DNA of 64,000 nt from Octopus vulgaris. Its lineage: Eukaryota. Within the stretch, counting starts at the first letter, position 1. Each line of letters opens with the position of its first letter. This document shows, piece by piece, positions 22,748-51,510 of the stretch. The notes beneath the pieces are model-generated. The model saw nothing but the letters and a program-made list of their open reading frames with translations, was not told the DNA's origin and searched no databases. A program made the translations under genes and the position numbers. The stretch covers positions 98,890,001 to 98,954,000 of the forward strand of contig OX597819.1 of NCBI GenBank assembly GCA_951406725.2, in the 5' to 3' direction.

Positions 22748-23167
22748 TATTTCTTTATTGCCCACAAGGGGCTAAAACTAGAGGAGCCAAACAAGGACAC
22801 ACAAACACATTAAGTCGATTATATCGACACCAGTGCGTAACTGGTACTTATTTAATCGACCCCGAAAGGATGAAAGGCAAAAATCAACCTCGGCGGAATT
22901 TGAACTAAGAACGTAATGGCAGACGAAATACCTATTTCTTTACTACCCACAAGGGGCTAAACACAGAGGGAACAAACAAGGATAGACAAACGGTTTAAGT
23001 CGATTATATCGACCCCCAGTGCGTAACTGGTACTTAATTTATCGACCCCGAAAGGATGAAAGGCAAAGTCGACCTCGGCGGAATTTGAACTCAGAACGTA
23101 ATGGCAGACGAAATACCGCTAAGTATTTCGCCCGGCGTGCTAACGTTTCTGCCAGCTCACCGCCTTC
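22748..23167 (-). mobile_element. tRNA-headed SINE (family B, Nin/Deu-like core) with duplicated body and tail, and a 15-bp TSD
   Basis: Minus head GGCGGTGAGCTGGCAGAA...GTTCAAATTCC; core TTTCATCCTTTCGGGGTCGATAAA; tail ...CCCCTTGTGGG(T/C)A(G/A)TAAAGAAATA present twice. TSD aatgagccacactgt (22733-22747) / aatgagccatattgt (23168-23182). Confidence 0.9.
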
Positions 23168-25564: not shown

Positions 25565-25752
25565 CATAGGACACGGCCTGAATATTTTGGAGAGAGGGCT
25601 AGTCGATTATATCTACTCAAGAGCTCAACTGGTATTTATTTGATCGACCTCGAATGGATAAAAGGCCAAGTCAACCTCAATGGAATTTGAACTCTGAACG
25701 TAAAGACGGACGAAATTCCATTCAGCATTTTTTCCAGGCGTTCTAACGATTC
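25565..25752 (-). mobile_element. Degenerate SINE (family B)
   Basis: tcgacctcgaatggataaaggccaagtcaacctc...ggaatttgaactc matches family B. Confidence 0.65.
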
Positions 25753-25789: not shown

Positions 25790-26020
25790 GGCCTAGAAGG
25801 GCAGGTGTATAACTTCCGACGCTGCTGTATCTTTCGAAAGGAATACCTCCATGAAGGTCAAAGACAATTTGACCAGATACAAAGACTTAGAGATCGAAAT
25901 GAACAACATGTAGAATATAAATACCAAATACAATACCAGTGGTCATTGAAGCAGGAGAACTCATGAAGTAGAGAAAGGACACGTTCAGCAAGCAAAGAAA
26001 ATACGCGATACCAAATTACG
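25790..26020 (+). mobile_element. Degraded RLE endonuclease fragment
   Basis: DAAVSFERN...RYKDLEIEMNNM...IPVVIEAG. Confidence 0.55.
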
Positions 26021-26419
26021 ATATATGTTTATACAGTAAGCTTAACGTAAAATTCTACATTAAGTCTCCTATGTAAACAGATGTCGTAAATTGGGTAACA
26101 TATAAATTTAATTCTTGTATTGCAACACATTTCTTTTTCAACTCTTTGATAAAAGCTATCACCGGAAGCGTTAAAATCTATTCTGTTTCCTCCACTGATG
26201 TATTTATTTTCATTGTGCACGTTTTTCATTGTCTTTTTTCTTTTCGTTTTATATTCCTACCCTTTTACTGTCACGAACTTTCGTTTGTCCGACTACGCGT
26301 ATTATTTACTTGCTTTTCTCACTCTTTCCTCATTATCATCTCATTTGCTTTATTTGTATAACATTTGTCCAAGCAGACCAAATCACCCCTTCTTCGCTGA
26401 TTGACCACAACTACCATTT

Positions 26420-26490
<71 letters not shown>

Positions 26491-26554
26491 GTCTGTCTGT
26501 CTGTCTGTTTGGCTGGCTGCCTGCCTGCCTGCCTGTCTGCCTGCCTGCCTGCCT
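26420..26554 (+). repeat. (TCTA)n(TCTG)n(GCCT)n compound microsatellite
   Basis: Directly visible. Confidence 0.95.
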
Positions 26555-26740
26555 GGCGTGGGTGTGTGGTAACTAGCTTGCTTACCAAATTTGCTTCCAA
26601 ATTTGAATACTGTCAAGAATGTGCTTTTGTAGCCGTCCTGAATTGAAAAAATATTGAAGGCGTGACTGTAAGGTAGGCATCTTTTTTTTTTAGTGGTTTT
26701 GTTGTTTGATATTGTTTTTTTCTTTTTTCAAAAAAGAAAT

Positions 26741-28493
26741 CCTCACTGGGTACCAGACATTTGTCTGCCTGCAGTCGCGCTAAGTGACTCACTTAGCTGT
26801 GAGAATTGTTGTTTGGTGGGCGTGTCTCGCCACCTAAATTTGTGAAAATTTTATGAAATTTTCTACCAATTCGTGGAGGATTTTTCTGTGTTCCTGCTTC
26901 TGAACCTGGAGTACCTGATTAGAGTACCAATTTGTTGAAAACATGTTGGCCAAGATTACCAGAGGCCGGAAGTGTATTTGCCGTGATTTTAACTGTCTTC
27001 TTCCCTTCTTTTTCTCTGCGCTGTCTTTCTGCTCTTTTATTTATTTTTGACTGTGCTAGACTGTTTATTTTGAACTATTTAATTTTCTTTTTCTGCAAAC
27101 ATGGCAAAAAAAATTGCTTTGGATTGGGAAATTGTGCCTTCAAGGCAGTGGTTGGAAAATTTCAATGAGAGAACCGTGGCCTTGAGAAATTATTGTAAGT
27201 CTCTCGACACCATTACTGTATTCTCTCGAATTGATTTTAAAAATGCGTTGGCAGAATATCTGCTAACTATTAAGTTTATTGCAAGGGGTGTCAAGTATGC
27301 AACTGTGTGGTTGCTATTTGACACCCCTGAGGAGGATCGCAATTTTGCGAGCCAGCCCTTAAAAGGGAAAAAAATTCTGTTTCTTCCCACATATGGTGGG
27401 TAGAAATAAACAAGAGCTTGGGTCTATGGGCTGCCAACCGGAATAAAACCCGAGTGGATAGAAGACACTATCCGCCTGGGTCTGGGTGGCAACGAAGCGA
27501 AGCTCATTAATGTTGAAGTGTTGCCTGCTGCTGATTCGGTGGGGTCGAAAGCAGTTTTGACCCTGTGAACCCAATCAGCCAATGATCTGGTTTTTCCAGA
27601 TTTTTTGAGGATGGCCGGTTCTAGGTATCCGGTGATTCTTGAGGGACGTCCCCCCCCCCAAGTGTCACCTGTGCCTGGAACCGGGCCACATTAAGAACTG
27701 CCTTCAGGACCAAGGTAAGGTCCTGGAGCAGTTAATAAAAGTAGTGCCCCCCGCTCCCCCTTCAGAGGGAGAGATGGAGGCAGTCGAGGAAGTGAAGACC
27801 TCCTCGAAAAAAGGTAAAATAGAAAGAAGGTGGGCAACCATTGTTGCCCACCAATGGATCCTGAGGCGACGGGACAAAACGAAAGCACTCCACCCTCCCG
27901 TCATAAAGGAGAAAAGAAGAAAAAAGTAAAACGGGGTATTGCCGGCGGTTGCTAGTACACTGCCGACATGTCCCGAGGTCCCTTCGGTAGGGAATTGTGC
28001 CAACGGAGGGGGGATTTGAGGACTCTCCCAATGTGGAGGGGGAATTTGTAGTCCTGTTTCACAAGGGAGGGGAAATAAAAGAAATGATCAAAAAGTTTAA
28101 TAAAAAAGGTCGGAGGGAAGGGATTATTACCTGTACCAAGGACTCTGATTGGCCTCCGAAGGTAGCTGCGGAGGTCGTGTGGTAAAAAAACTTGTTTGAG
28201 GGATTCCTTCCCTGAGGACACATTCCGCTTTATGCTGAAGTACCCCGAACTAGCACCATCGAGGTGCTTGAGTGAGGCATTGAGACTGGTCGGGTGACGG
28301 TGGGGCGTAAAATTTAAGAGGCTTAGTGCCTCGTATTGTGCATCAAAATTAAGGTCAGAGGTTTAATGCCTCGGTTTGTTGTTTTTTTGAGTTTATTGTT
28401 AGTAAGAGGCTCAGCGCCTCAATTTATAATGAACTGTGGGGCTAAAGTAAGAGGTTTAATACCTCGTATTGTTTTCATGGTGTAAAAAAAAAA
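26741..28493 (+). mobile_element. ORF1-only (half-L1/Tx1-like) non-autonomous retroelement
   Basis: About 360-bp 5'UTR, a single disrupted ORF1-like frame, four hairpin repeats, then A11. No endonuclease or RT. The 5' boundary is approximate. Confidence 0.7.
27101..28297 (+). pseudogene. Disrupted L1/Tx1-type ORF1 (RRM-like region plus CCHC zinc knuckle)
   Basis: MAKKIALDW...LFLPTYGG*K*TRAWVYGLPTGIKPEWIE...YPVILEGRPP/KCHLCLEPGHIKNC, then a low-complexity basic region. In-frame stops and frameshifts. Confidence 0.75.
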
Positions 28494-29139
28494 GAGAAGT
28501 AAAAGATCGACGGGTGTCTTGTCTTTTCCCATCAATATCATCATTTTCATCACTCATCAATGTTTTTGTCCTGCTCGCAAGATACTCCCTCTGTGCTATG
28601 CCTTTATGGCAAAATTTTGAAATAAACTACCTTGCTTACCAACCACATGGTTCCGTGTTCAATCCCACCGTGTGGCACCTTGGGCAAGTGTCTTGTACTA
28701 TAGCCTCGGGCCGACCAAAACTTTGTAAGTTGATTTGGCAGACGGAAACTGAAAGAAGCCCGTCATATATATGTGTGTGTATCTGTGTGTTTGTGTGTCT
28801 GTGTTGGTCCCTAGCCATCGCTTGACAACCGATGTTGGTGTGTTTATGTCCCCGCAACTTAGCAGTTTGGTAAAAGAGACCGATAGGATAAGTACTAGGC
28901 TTTCAAAGAATAAGCCCTGGGCTCGATTTGCTCGACTAAAGGAGGTGCTGCAGCGCTGAAACAAATAAAAGAATAAATGAATATGTATATATTTGGCATA
29001 CGTAAGCACATTTGTAAAATCTTGGTATATACCTATGTGTACTTGTAATATACATGTACAGGCTTTTTACTGTGGACGTGTACAAACGTATGCATGAGTG
29101 TGTATGAGTGCATTGAACTACAAATATGGTTGCATGTAT

Positions 29140-29345
29140 AAACAACACTGGTTTTGTAAGTAAATGTCACAATTTGGATAAGCTGAGGTGTTTAGAAAAA
29201 GAAATCAAACAGCTAGCTCGCATATTACAAATACAGTCTGTAAGTGGGACAGTAAAAATATGCAAGGATTTTCTAAAATTTAAAATGATACTTTTTTTTA
29301 TCTACATTCCAACAACAAAGCTTTCTAGGAACCTCGGAGGAACAA
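29140..29345 (+). mobile_element. 3' end of a second RLE-type non-LTR family
   Basis: [42 protein letters not shown]. Complements the minus-strand fragment at 32910-33050. Confidence 0.55.
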
Positions 29346-29407
29346 TTCGACTAATTAAAGATAGAAGAGAACGCGCGCGTACACACACGTATACATACAT
29401 GCATGCA

Positions 29408-29440
<33 letters not shown>

Positions 29441-29464
29441 GCGCACACATTACATACACACATA

Positions 29465-30998
<1,534 letters not shown>

Positions 30999-44985: not shown

Positions 44986-46439
44986 GCATTCCGACGATGA
45001 CAATTTTATCAATTTCAGTATTATTCCGATAATCAGTTGCTGCTTATTACAAATCACACCAATCATCATTTGATTTGGGAGGTGAAGCCGAGAATAACCT
45101 TGAAACGTTAGCAGATTAAACTCAAACACATTCAGGTATTCAACATATCATACACACACAAACGCGCATACTTTCACAAACATGGAACCTCACCCTTCAT
45201 ATATATATGCACACTCCATCAACCCACACCCTTTAAAATGTAGCGATAAATAAATAAATAAATAAATAAGAAGGCATGATCAATGCTCCGACCGTAAGAA
45301 TGCTCGATTATCAAGGCTGACCTGGCGCGAAACATCAACTCAAAAACGGAAATTAATCTGGTTAAATCCATGGGTGTAGGAGCCAATGTTACTAGTAAAA
45401 TTACAATTCCCAAACGCGCACCAATACAACTGACAATTAAGCAACAATAAAGTTAAAATACGTTAGGTATTGTTTCACAGCTTTCACATTATAATCTAAG
45501 ACAAACACTCTGTAAGGCTCTATTCCAACCGCAGACTTCTAAGTGCAGACAATCCTAAGCGACCGACTTAGATGATTGTGCATCTCTGTAAGGTAGAGAT
45601 ATACTGGACAACCATAACATTCTCACACGATATCGAAAGGAATCATACGGAACTCATCGCAATAATTTTAAGGGGTGATATTACTAATATATACATTTGC
45701 TGAGGTTGGGGAGTAAAATAACTTCCCTTGCTGGTTATCAGTTCGTTTGTAAGCTAAGAAATTGTTTATGTATAAGTAAGAGCGTCACATAATCTGAAAT
45801 GTTGAGAAGGACCAACTCATACATTTAAGGGGATAAAAGTTGTGGAATATTTGTGATTGAAGCGTTCCAGAAGCTGAATAAGCTGGTGATATCGCCGAAT
45901 ATGAGTTCTGAGATACAGTCTATCTGCCAACATCAGACACAAGTACTTTTGGAGAACTTGATTCCATCTGGAGAACTCACTGAATTTGTACAACTTGTGA
46001 AAGTCTAAATACCATGGGAAATGCAGTATACCATACTGAAACAACCTTAAGATCAAACCAGAATGTTCTTTCTTAAAAAGCAACAACCAGCTGGCATCAA
46101 CAGAATCTGCTGAAGTGCAATGCAAACTATCATATTAGAACTCTCGACTAAGGAGAATTGACGTATCCTGTAACTTGCGACTATAAACCATCCATGTTAA
46201 AGCTACCTGACTGATCGCAAGTGATGTGATACTCTGAGTGGCAACGGAATAGATCCTCAAGTGTGACATATAATACACACACACACACATGTGTATATAT
46301 ATATATATATACACACACGCACAGACTCATACACACACATATATGTGTGTGTATCTACATTTTCCAATATATATATACATATGCGCACAAACACATACAC
46401 ACACATATATACATGTGTATGTGTATCACTACACTTTCC

Positions 46440-47469: not shown

Positions 47470-48190
47470 CACCATCACAAAATCACAAAATCACCATCAC
47501 AAAATCAACAAGCTGCTTCTAACACCACTGCTACTACTGCCAAAATAGAAAAACCACTACTACAACCAAATAAAACCCCCTGCCGTTACTATTCTAAAGG
47601 CAATTGTAGATTTGGCCCCAGCGGCACAAACAAAAATGGACGCTGTGCTTTTCCCCATCCGACCTTATGTCGTAGACTTGCTATGGGCACCTGTCCATAC
47701 GGTATAACAGGAAAAATTGCCCCCACCTCCACCCCAAATACTGTCCTAAATATAGAATCTATGGTTCTGATCCTAAATACGGATGCATAAGAGGCAATGG
47801 ATGCACCTTATTCCATCCTAAACTGTGCCAAACTTCTGTCTCACAAAGGATGTGCCTGAACCCAGAATGCAACCACCACCATCTGAAGGGCACAAAACGA
47901 TCACAGAATAGATGTAAACAGGAACAGAGGAAATCTAGGACAACAACAAGAACAAAATACAACCACGTTTCCCCTCCTACAATCAAACAACGTAGACAGA
48001 ACCATGAAAAAACACCAAATAACGCCAACTTGAAATATGTATCCTCTGACCAAGTGGAAAACCAAACAAGTAACTCTTTTTTACTGACATACCTGGAAAA
48101 TATGAAGGCCGACCTAAGCCAGGAGATCCAGCGAGCCATCACCAACCATCTATGCAAATCAGAAGGACCACTCACCCATTACCAACTTCC
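47470..48190 (+). pseudogene. LINE ORF1 remnant with tandem CCCH zinc fingers
   Basis: CRYYSKGNCRFG...CAFPHPTLCRRLAMGTCPYG..CPHLHPKYC...GCIRGNGCTLFHPKLC...CLNPECNHHH, read across a frameshift near 47715. Confidence 0.75.
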
Positions 48191-48194
48191 CTTA

Positions 48195-51100
48195 CCTCGA
48201 CATTCCTGTTAAATGTACGTGGCATCAACCCATCAATTATTGCCCAAAAATGGAAGATCCCATATATAGAGAGTTGACTTGCCGAAATGGCACATTGCTT
48301 CCCTTTCTTTATCCTTACCGAGACTCACCTGAACAACACCCATATGGACGCAGAGGTGAAAATAAAGATTTCACTATTGTTCGTGCGGATCGCACAGACC
48401 GAAATAAGGGAGGGACAGCCATCTTTATCCATGACTCCTTTTCACTTGATGCCAAGGACACATTTTCCAATGGCTACTGTGAATCGGTATCACTATACAA
48501 CAAAGCCAAGGACATAACCATTGTTGGTCTTTACAGGCCTCCCCAGGCACCTCTAAAGTACTTTGAAGAGTGCCTTAGCAAAGTCAAGTCCTTCCTTCGG
48601 AAGTACCACTCCGGAAACATACTAGTGATGGGTGATTTTAACCTCCCTCATGTGAACTGGCCCACAAATACTCCGAAGTTAGGCAAGTGCTCTACATCAG
48701 ATAGGGCAGCAGCAGAACTGCTCTTTAATCTGATGGATGAGTATTTTCTGACTCAGCTAGTGCTTGAACCAACGAGACAGAATAAAACGATCTTGGATCT
48801 GGTATTGACCAATCACTCTAGCTACGTTCACAGCATTTCAGTCGAAAAACTCTCCTCTCAGACCACGACATGATACTCTGCAATCTTAATTCCCGACATA
48901 TAAAAACCAAACCAGCCAATCCCACTTCATGGCACCCATTTGACAACATAAACTTCCACAAAGCGGACTGGGGAACAATCAGAAAGGATCTGTCTTCCAT
49001 CGACTGGTCTTTTACTCTCAATTCCCCTCATATTGAGACCGCGTGGCAGCACTTTGAAACCATTGTCACCTATACATGGCTGCTCTCGATTATTGGGATC
49101 GCCTTAAAGCCTTGAAACTTTACTCCCTCCAGCGTCGCCGTGAGCGGTACATCATTTGTACGATGTGGAAAATATACCACCAACTTTGCCCAAACGACAT
49201 AAACATTAGCTTCAAGGTTCATCCAAGACTTGGACCACGGGTTATACGTCCCCTGCCAAATTCAAGATCACAACATACATGTACACTGCAACATAATTTC
49301 TTTTCCTCAACAGGCCCTGCCCTATTTAACATTGTCCCGAGGGAGATCAAAGAGGAAAAGGATCCCATCAACTTCAAACAGAGTCTGGATAGATTCCTTC
49401 AAAGAATACCCATGCTCCAAACACGCTCCCAAGAAATCTAATAACACAAACAGAAACCGGCTCCCTAAAAAGAAAAAAACACTCATCGGGCGCATCAAAA
49501 GACTCAACAAAAAAATCAACCAGTTAAAATATTCCCACACACAACATCCACATTCAACAACAATGAAAAGACTAGAGCTGGAAAAACTTCATCTGCAGAC
49601 TAACATGAAAACCTCCATCGAAAATCAAAGAGCTGTGGAGGAACAATGGGTAATCAAAAACATCAAAAAGAACCCAAAAGTGTTCTATTCTTATGCAAAT
49701 AAGCATAGAACCACTGTCTCACCCATTGGGCCATTGATTGATGATAACGGCATTCCCCAACACGATGCTAAAGAAATGGCAGAAATACTGCAGAAACAAT
49801 ACTGCTCTGTCTTCAGTGTTCCCACTGATATTGACGTAAAGGGAAACGAACGAAGTTGACTCCCAACACAAAATCGCAGACATAACCTTCACTGCCACCG
49901 ACATCGTAGCAGCAATAAATGAGGTCAAACATTACTCTGCTGTAGGTCCTGATAGATTTCCCGCTAGTCTCCTGACGGAATGTAGATATCAACTTGCAGT
50001 CCCTCTGACCAACCTCTGGAGAAACTCGTTAGACGCAGGTTATATAGCGAAACAGTTTCTATCCCAGTCGGTCATCCCGGTTTTCAAACAGGGAAACAGA
50101 TCCCTCGCAGTCAACTATCGCCCAATCTCACTCACCTCCTACATCATTAAAGTGTTTGAAAGAGTGTTAAGGTTAAGGATAGCTGACTTCCTGGAGACCC
50201 ACAAACTCCTAAATGCAAATCAGCATGGCTTTCACTGTGGCAGGGACTGTCTAAGACAGCTCTTACACCACATTGAAGATGTACTCAAAGCCTTGGGAAC
50301 AGGTTCGAACTCTGACGTCATATATCTTGACTTCAGTAAAGCGTTCGACAGGGTAGACCATAACATCCTACTCTCAAAATTGGCAAATGTTGGAATCCGT
50401 GGAAAAGTTCTACGCTGGATTCAGTATTTCCTGGCAAATAGAACACAACATGTTGTAGTTGATGGAGTCCACTCAAACCCAGCAAAAGTCACCAGCGGTG
50501 TTCCCCAGGGAACTGTTTTGGGTCCGCTACTCTTCATAACTTACGTAAACGACCTTTCCAGTGTCGTACATCACTGCAAAGTGAAAATATTCGCTGATGA
50601 CACTAAGCTCCAGCAAATCGTCAATGAAGAAGCAGACCGAACTCAACTCCAGTCTGATCTATATGCTGTGAGTCAATGGGCAGACAGAAACAAAATGCAA
50701 CTGAATGAGGGAAAATTTGAGCTGATGCATTTTGGAAGAAATTCCTCACTAAAACAACCATACTCTCTTCCTTCAGGGGAACCGCTCACAGCCTCTAACA
50801 ATATCAGAGACCTGGGTGTAATTGTTGATGACGATCTCAGTTGGAGTGCACACATCAACAAGAAGGTCGATATAGCTCGTAGGATGAGTTCCTGGATCTT
50901 AAGAACTTTCCGGTCCAGAGAACAAGGTGTCATCATACCACTTTTTTCCTCCTTTGTACGGCCACACCTTGAATACTGCTGCCCACTGTGGTCTCCTCAC
51001 ACAAGACAAAACATCTCCAGAATTGAGTCACCCCAGAGGGCTCTCACTAAACAAATTGAAGGCATGGCTGCTCTCGATTATTGGGATCGCCTTAAAGCCT

Positions 51101-51510
51101 TGAAACTTTACTCCCTCCAGCGTCGCCGTGAGCGGTACATCATTTGTACGATGTGGAAAATATACCGCCAACTTTGCCCAAACGACCTAAACATTAGCTT
51201 CAAGGTTCATTCAAGACTTGGACCACGGGCTATACGTCCCCTGCCAAATTCAAGATCACAACATACATGTACACTGCAACATAATTTCTTTTCCTCAACA
51301 GGCCCTGCCCTATTTAACATTGTTCCGAGGGAGATCAAAAGAGGAAAAGGATCCCATCAACTTCAAACAGAGTCTGGATAGATTCCTTCAAAGAATACCA
51401 GATAAGCCACCCATAATTGGATACAACTCACCCAACAAGAACTCACTACTTGAACAAAACTGGATACAACTCACCCAACAAGAACTCACTACTTGAACAA
51501 AACTTGACTT
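48195..51510 (+). pseudogene. LINE ORF2 remnant: apurinic endonuclease plus reverse transcriptase
   Basis: LLNVRGI, LTETHL, GGTAIF, GLYRPP, MGDFNLP, PTRQ..ILDLVLTN, SDHD; NYRPISLTS, QHGF, YLDFSKAFDRVDH, SGVPQGTVLGPLLF, FADDTK, DLGV, RPHLEYC..WSP. Longest intact piece is 50152-51381. Confidence 0.93.

Follow-up and report, generated by a model that had tools for sequence, protein, structure and literature searches.

Four repeated GAGG/CCTC hairpins as a probable RNA signal in the 3' region of an ORF1-only, L1/Tx1-like retroelement of Octopus vulgaris

The choice of RNA by the ORF1 proteins of non-LTR retrotransposons is poorly defined, and why parasitic elements keep ORF1 and drop ORF2 is an open question. 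In the window, the whole 64-kb stretch of Octopus vulgaris DNA analysed in this work, a decayed retroelement carries four copies of a small hairpin downstream of its only gene, and the locus raises the question of whether these hairpins have been kept as RNA structures and, if so, what reads them. An initial annotation described them as a selected stem-loop array with compensatory changes, located just before the poly(A) and serving, for example, reverse transcriptase (RT) recruitment or ORF1p packaging. The four hairpins are as follows.

28318..28332, + strand: hairpin 1, GAGGC-TTAGT-GCCTC; -9.0 kcal/mol alone, stem probability 0.53-0.99 depending on the folding context
28358..28372, + strand: hairpin 2, GAGGT-TTAAT-GCCTC; its U-G closing pair is possible on the + strand only
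28406..28420, + strand: hairpin 3, GAGGC-TCAGC-GCCTC; the apical portion of a longer predicted stem-loop
28451..28465, + strand: hairpin 4, GAGGT-TTAAT-ACCTC; possible lower stem at 28433-28481

These are the only exact matches to GAGGY-N5-RCCTC in the 64 kb, against a mean of 0.03 and a maximum of 1 in 100 shuffles, and one extra, unrelated site appears in the window when one mismatch is allowed. The motif extends slightly beyond the hairpin, with an invariant T at -3, an invariant A at -1 and TAA in three of the four units, and the loops follow the pattern U-Y-A-R-N. The closing pairs (C-G, U-G, C-G and U-A in hairpins 1 to 4) and the spacer lengths (25, 33 and 30 nt) agree with the initial annotation, as does its description of the spacers as largely dissimilar (p 0.29-0.51 against shuffles for the three spacer pairs). 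With the flanks included, the sequence upstream of hairpin 1 and spacer 3 form the sole alike pair of 10 (p 0.0035, uncorrected), and the flanks of units 1 and 4 align at 81% over 43 nt. A simple tandem repeat, which the annotation had named among the outcomes that would overturn its reading, was rejected: TRF called repeats on either side of the array and none at it, and the units do not align end to end, the flanks of units 1 and 4 being the only ones that do. Clusters of at least three hairpins with the same stem and the same loop length within 200 nt number two in the window, the array and a cluster with an ACAC stem at 46277-46401.

The array is part of a 2,036-bp insert (26589-28624). 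These bounds follow from a SINE-like repeat, matching four intact copies in the window at 86-89%, which is split between two 18-bp duplications. The insert and its borders comprise the following features.

26571..26588, + strand: left outer target-site duplication, 18 bp, inside the split SINE-like repeat; one mismatch
26589..26739, + strand: left flank, related to the 3' region of the family and devoid of a matching hairpin
26730..26739, + strand: left copy of a possible inner target-site duplication (AAAAAAGAAA); right copy at 28488-28497, 9 of 10 letters alike
26740..27100, + strand: likely 5' UTR; 26740-26920 folds at z -3.05 (0/200 shuffles)
27101..28275, + strand: decayed ORF1, broken by several stop codons and frameshifts, with a presumed end at 28275
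28484..28493, + strand: A10 run, either a short poly(A) tail with the inner target duplication or an internal A-rich tract
28498..28624, + strand: distal family-associated segment of about 130 nt, ending at AATAAA (28621-28626); unstructured as a whole (z 0.13)
28625..28642, + strand: right outer target-site duplication, 18 bp, where the repeat resumes

ORF1 takes up about 1,175 nt of the insert and 349 nt follow its stop, with the array starting 42 nt 3' of that presumed stop. ORF2 is absent from the insert in this copy, there being no ORF of at least 150 aa between 24228 and 29116, and no LTR or inverted ends occur between the insert's two ends. The context proposed in the initial annotation, the 3' region of a non-autonomous, ORF1-only, L1/Tx1-like retroelement, is supported. 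Its placement of the array just before the poly(A) holds in that the A10 run lies 18 nt past hairpin 4, and needs qualifying in that the insert continues for about 130 nt beyond. Within the likely 5' UTR, 26740-26920 contains several strong predicted hairpins, one of them with a 12-bp stem. Other repeats lie in the surrounding sequence: 22748-23117 is an interspersed repeat of two tandem 185-bp copies, with a similar copy near 25600-25750, and a short fragment at about 25790-25960 is, by eye, what we take to be similar to the C-terminal coding end of another non-LTR element. In a separate decayed LINE (47676-51504), frames for endonuclease (PF14529) and RT (PF00078) were recognised, together with a C/H-rich frame upstream; a C-terminal piece is duplicated at about 49058-49441, and the element finishes in a 43-bp tandem repeat. 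This LINE is without the GAGGY-N5-RCCTC motif and is not an obvious partner.

Over its first 186 residues, ORF1 shares 74% identity with P0002, an uncharacterised protein of Octopus sinensis, and a protein search with ORF1 gave nine hits, the five named ones all from Octopus. The domains predicted for ORF1 are listed below.

ORF1 residues about 14-101 and about 103-186, + strand: two predicted RRMs, from the model of the relative P0002
27663-27701, + strand: zinc-knuckle remnant, followed by a low-complexity tail

The model of P0002 (mean pLDDT 67, from a 10-sequence alignment) has two tandem RRM-like domains that match RRM folds with VIA Z 7-8 and rmsd 2.3-2.8 over 72-81 residues, which is middling by the tool's scale. 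The knuckle motif is intact in another relative (P0010) and damaged in both the window ORF1 and P0002; its look-alikes by search are CCHC/ZCCHC3-type RBD proteins, and a PDB sequence search returned weak knuckle matches alone (best E 0.025). Pfam gave no ORF1 domain above cut-off, and no L1 ORF1p chain was among the fold-search matches listed, which is compatible with kinship. A search for longer relatives found none, P0002 as a query retrieved only itself, an alignment query gave two hits, and the GTDB genomes yielded no homologue. The C-terminus of P0002 corresponds to about position 27930 of the window; the family frame presumably reaches 28275, since at the two later in-frame stops at least half of the contig depth has another letter in most runs. 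The ORF1 product is predicted to be an RRM-RRM-knuckle RNA binder. An O. sinensis gene model with the name K02A2.6-like (P0009, XP_029639579), in which a piece resembling the ORF1 start is fused to an integrase-type-like sequence, is probably an annotation chimera.

The predicted combination of RRM and CCHC knuckle is shared with the type I ORF1p of the L1/Tx1 clade, and we infer the clade from ORF1 type alone, as the insert contains no RT or endonuclease and type I ORF1p is found in other clades too. According to the available part of a survey, at least one RRM together with a CCHC motif makes a type I ORF1p, which in non-mammalian animals is tied to the Tx1 group (PMC5203782). LINE derivatives with ORF1 as their only gene have been described, and multimerisation of their proteins with those of a partner has been proposed (PMC5786205, in part). 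The octopus element resembles HeT-A (Jockey), HAL1 (L1) and Ag-Sponge (CR1) in having one ORF1p-like gene, no ORF2, multiple copies, target duplications and an A-rich end (PMC5786205, PMC5753468, in the parts available); the copy in the window has an ORF1p-like protein encoded by a broken ORF, no ORF2, a target-site duplication and an A-rich 3' end. It differs from these elements, as far as the same parts describe them, by the predicted type I ORF1p (RRM-RRM-knuckle) and by the repeated hairpin array. The element class is already known, and the array is without description in the literature found; no account of the array or the family was met there, Repbase/Dfam and subscription papers being outside its scope, and the family is possibly catalogued.

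Other copies of the insert were surveyed in four of the 11 sequencing runs that contain the sequence; the four bear four organism labels and are not necessarily four species (X1, X7, X8 and X9; X1 is possibly the window's own source). Among 24 runs, no RNA run was listed as containing it, a result neutral as to expression. Contigs covering 28150-28570 (421 bases) numbered 148, 193, 170 and 156 in the four runs and were mostly less than 95% alike. The insert is one of many copies in its family; the 421-base stretch is longer than any listed contig covers, and other copies could carry ORF2. The layouts of these copies, taken from 24 of 175 loose ends, 12 of 81 indels and 9 joints, are diverse. 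Loose ends carry different spacer sequences beside hairpins 3 and 4, several with a terminal AAGA that resembles a unit's start. In X7 and X8 (five contigs each), a hairpin-1-like AGGC/GCCT stem with a 6-nt loop lies directly 5' of the hairpin-3 module, a 17-nt spacer deletion is present in three runs, two joints represent other unit layouts, one copy has a hairpin-2-like unit after hairpin 3, and one joint in X1 has 15 letters in place of hairpins 1-3. Between copies, then, the spacers differ in sequence, length and unit number and the stems persist, a comparison which the initial annotation had proposed as a check. Depth peaks at 28390-28434 in X7, X8 and X9, with loose ends at 28391 and 28435, and is without a peak in X1. 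The peak over this module in three of the four runs suggests that the 45-nt hairpin-3 module is common to another family.

For the ends of the element, two readings are about even: an ORF1 element running from 26740 to the A-run is nested in the 3' end of a truncated relative, or 28498-28624 is the element's own tail. The first agrees with the structure beginning at 26740, with the longer A-runs behind 28475 in other copies (X7, X9), and with two motifs from other copies' loose ends, each of which has one match in the window, both in 26589-26739 (a post hoc observation); it makes the A10 run a plausible element tail. The inner duplication is weak, its 8-mer occurring 15 times in the window, and lies at a T-run/A-run junction which we take to resemble the L1 endonuclease site consensus. 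The second reading agrees with the distal segment having a depth similar to that of the array region and being joined to it in four contigs by three different joints; these joints fit either a target preference or a shared tail. Because the left flank resembles the family's 3' region except for having no hairpins, the A-rich tract in relatives' 3' ends is a possible insertion site of the element. An inverted repeat, TGCC-TTTAT-GGCA (28599-28611), stands 10 nt before the terminal AATAAA as a candidate tail signal and is not exactly reproduced in the minimum-energy fold.

Each hairpin unit is predicted to form a 5-nt loop on a 5-bp stem at -6.6 to -9.0 kcal/mol. In local folding the stem probability is about 0.99 for units 2-4 and 0.53 for unit 1; when folding is global and unrestricted, hairpins 2 and 4 often exchange arms and their local stem probability is 0.25-0.38. 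Compared with shuffled sequence, the array folds at z -3.1 locally (0/200 shuffles) and z -2.0 globally (7/200). Every unit with its flanks folds better on the sense strand than on the antisense strand, and hairpin 2 alone gives -6.9 against -4.3 kcal/mol. One unit appears as part of a larger structure:

28390..28435, + strand: extended hairpin-3 module with a predicted 10-bp lower stem

Flank shuffles equalled this lower stem in 15/500 and 25/500 cases (p 0.03-0.05, uncorrected for four units), and a listed change at 28427 in other copies breaks one of its pairs; the stretch coincides with the depth peak, unit 3 being the only one with a supported lower stem. For the lower stem of hairpin 4 (28433-28481) the corresponding counts were 196/500 and 84/500, not significant. 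Across the units, cognate flank pairing ranked second to third of 24. Long lower stems were rejected for every unit except unit 3. At 28436-28441, the window has three G's where the contigs of other copies mostly or always have A (always at 28440 and 28441); in the predicted lower stem of hairpin 4 each of these G's faces a U in a pair, and the A's stabilise that stem from -13.9 to -16.1 kcal/mol. The clustered A-to-G changes could be due to RNA editing before insertion or to copying of a similar G-run found before hairpin 1. Family-wide A-to-I editing was rejected, as the other copies have no A>G excess (A>G at 0.07-0.14 per A; T>C at 0.17-0.19 per T). An Rfam scan placed no family on the array and gave five weak matches elsewhere, all under the gathering score, and no tRNA gene was called in 26000-29500.

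Among the four units, 8 of 10 stem columns are invariant, compared with 2 of 5 in the loops and 5 of 25 in the flanks (Fisher p 0.0017, for a block picked after being seen). Between copies, 13 of the 40 best-supported of 254 differences fall in the array, 11 of them in spacers, one in a loop and one in a stem. The sole stem difference listed, T at 28372 in hairpin 2 (4-5 contigs per run in three runs, 3 in the fourth), turns G-C into G-U and keeps the pairing. The probability of at most one difference in the stems is 0.087, not significant by itself, and that of no pair-breaking change 0.013; we regard this test as supporting and short of decisive, since the data are unphased, partial and support-weighted and, for many of the differences listed, the window's copy is the only one to deviate. 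Both wobble-type changes pair on the ORF1 sense strand only. The compensatory changes claimed by the initial annotation were not confirmed: four of the five pairs are invariant, the single varying pair gives no significant covariation among the four units (252/500 shuffles equal its score), and, given Y and R at the closing positions, pairing in four of four cases has a chance probability of 0.32.

The stems are near-constant and the intervening sequence changes; therefore, the hairpins are likely RNA handles, and we consider it probable that they are selected RNA structures forming a repeated stem-loop signal. Letter-for-letter stems combined with tolerant loops suggest that a protein recognises the stem, or the letters GAGG and TAA, in several copies. 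ORF1p is favoured as this protein because the only protein that the element retains is a predicted RNA binder and because ORF1-only derivatives are thought to multimerise with partner proteins. ORF1p as the hairpin ligand is nevertheless putative and falls somewhat short of an even chance, and tying the hairpins to ORF1p and not to another protein is equally tentative, the facts at hand being none of them specific to ORF1p. Under this reading, the units would probably have arisen by duplication, with only a module of about 18 nt retained; ORF1p would, after translation, load in cis on the hairpin array in several copies and package the RNA; and the particle would then borrow endonuclease and RT from an autonomous L1-Tx1 partner, as proposed for elements of the HeT-A/HAL1 type. 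In O. vulgaris, 80 L1-Tx1 consensus families are on record and 13 L1-Tx1 families have been active recently (PMC13282606). An essential role of the hairpins is opposed by the relative in the left flank, which is without a matching hairpin and was apparently mobilised anyway. The lack of covariation, the crosswise pairing of hairpins 2 and 4 in global folds and the X1 joint without hairpins 1-3 likewise count against the favoured reading.

The hairpins may instead be selected sites for a host factor that governs how the RNA is stabilised, localised, processed at its 3' end or translated, and they may descend from the inter-ORF region of an autonomous parent. This explanation is unlikely and still deserves serious consideration, as all the conservation evidence fits it equally well, the array begins just past the presumed ORF1 stop, where the parent's inter-ORF region would sit, and the depth peak over the hairpin-3 module suggests that another family shares it. 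Fish and frog L1 inter-ORF regions of 257-1032 nt have repeats and predicted IRESs, and the part of that account available to us describes these vertebrate regions as lacking a common RNA structure (PMC5381506), which speaks against the explanation together with the absence of an Rfam family over the array and of any autonomous parent among the sequences seen.

A stringent-type tail for the partner's RT, repeated to compete, is a rather improbable explanation. It accords with the closeness of hairpin 4 to the A-run (its end is 18 nt away), with the 5-nt loops on short stems, which resemble LINE tail stem-loops (PMC5135761, in part), and with the presence of such a tail in some plant L1-clade LINEs (PMC3747384, in part). 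Like the tails of ZfL2-1, ZfL2-2, UnaL2, SART1 and maize L1/SINE, the array places a short stem-loop close to the 3' end of the retroposon's RNA, and it has four units where those have one. ZfL2-1 and ZfL2-2 tolerate exchange of the stem and not of the loop, and the octopus array, with fixed stems (8 of 10 columns invariant) and variable loops (2 of 5 invariant), is the reverse. RT recruitment thus fits worse than ORF1p binding, because the stringent LINE RTs tested read one stem-loop via its loop, as reported in the available part of PMC4176376; of the two functions suggested by the initial annotation, the first is therefore weakened and the second stays putative. The element's 3' end is also possibly 160 nt further on, and a tail in common with an autonomous element is not among the observations.

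Similarly doubtful is a functionless relic, in which duplication, template slippage or short gene conversion multiplied a short palindromic unit that was then kept by descent alone. The aligned flanks of units 1 and 4 and the lack of covariation would be expected of it, and motif triples occur in many unrelated contigs: at least 120 metagenome loci (19 of 64 parts scanned) and five viral ones, none homologous by blastn or tblastn. Against a relic stand spacer pairs no more alike than shuffles beside nearly invariant stems, the absence of a called tandem repeat at the array, the three contig-majority letters falling in the very stretch that underlies the likeness of units 1 and 4, and the retention of the motif next to unlike spacers in other copies. 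Since at least 125 unrelated contigs have the same triple geometry, many of them with units that are identical and evenly spaced, array geometry alone is not rare, and the notable feature is a module conserved against changing spacers. A stricter double motif has no match in the GTDB genomes. One metagenome locus (L016) has a 51-nt A-rich match outside its array and was rejected as an unrelated contig. A further group of metagenome loci (L007, L017, L019, L030, L044-L047 and others) contains three GAGGTCTCCGGCCTC / GAGGCCGGAGACCTC units in mixed orientation at 31-53 nt spacing, is REP-type-like and is unrelated to the octopus array.

Action at the DNA level, as a palindromic site for a dimeric protein or a transcription signal, is very unlikely: the letter-for-letter conservation of the stems is what a protein half-site would have, whereas both tolerated changes (two cases only) give G-U on the sense RNA and a mismatch on the other strand, and one variant has a 6-nt spacing. 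The CRISPR-like geometry noted in the initial annotation (short palindromic units, unlike 25-33 nt spacers that differ between copies) is real and goes no further than geometry, and an array storing acquired spacers can be dismissed as scarcely conceivable, given 15-18 nt degenerate units in a eukaryotic retroposon, spacers resembling ordinary A/T-rich UTR without a match elsewhere in the window (best 17/25, 22/33 and 21/30) or in 50,697 phage records, and no cas gene near the array, where no long ORF occurs, the ORFs at 47.7-51.4 kb, within the subset of window ORFs scanned, being endonuclease and RT.

Taken at its widest, the ORF1p reading describes a group of octopus ORF1-only L1/Tx1 parasites with a modular, multivalent packaging signal, in which two to four or more units of a fixed GAGG/CCTC stem-loop, set between spacers that can be exchanged and common to several families, would be bound sequence-specifically by an RRM-RRM-knuckle ORF1p, and whose elements would insert into the 3' A-rich tract of relatives; as a whole, we hold this to be a speculative proposal with perhaps a modest chance of being right. 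A four-fold small hairpin beside a simple RRM-RRM-knuckle protein is a directly testable protein-RNA pair. If nothing binds the hairpins, the result amounts to annotating one octopus repeat family, a modest outcome; finding the motif in autonomous octopus L1-Tx1 elements as well would identify the partner; and if ORF1p binds them, they would constitute a portable packaging tag. Should the multivalent packaging-signal reading be true, the array would give a non-LTR element a natural signal comparable to psi.
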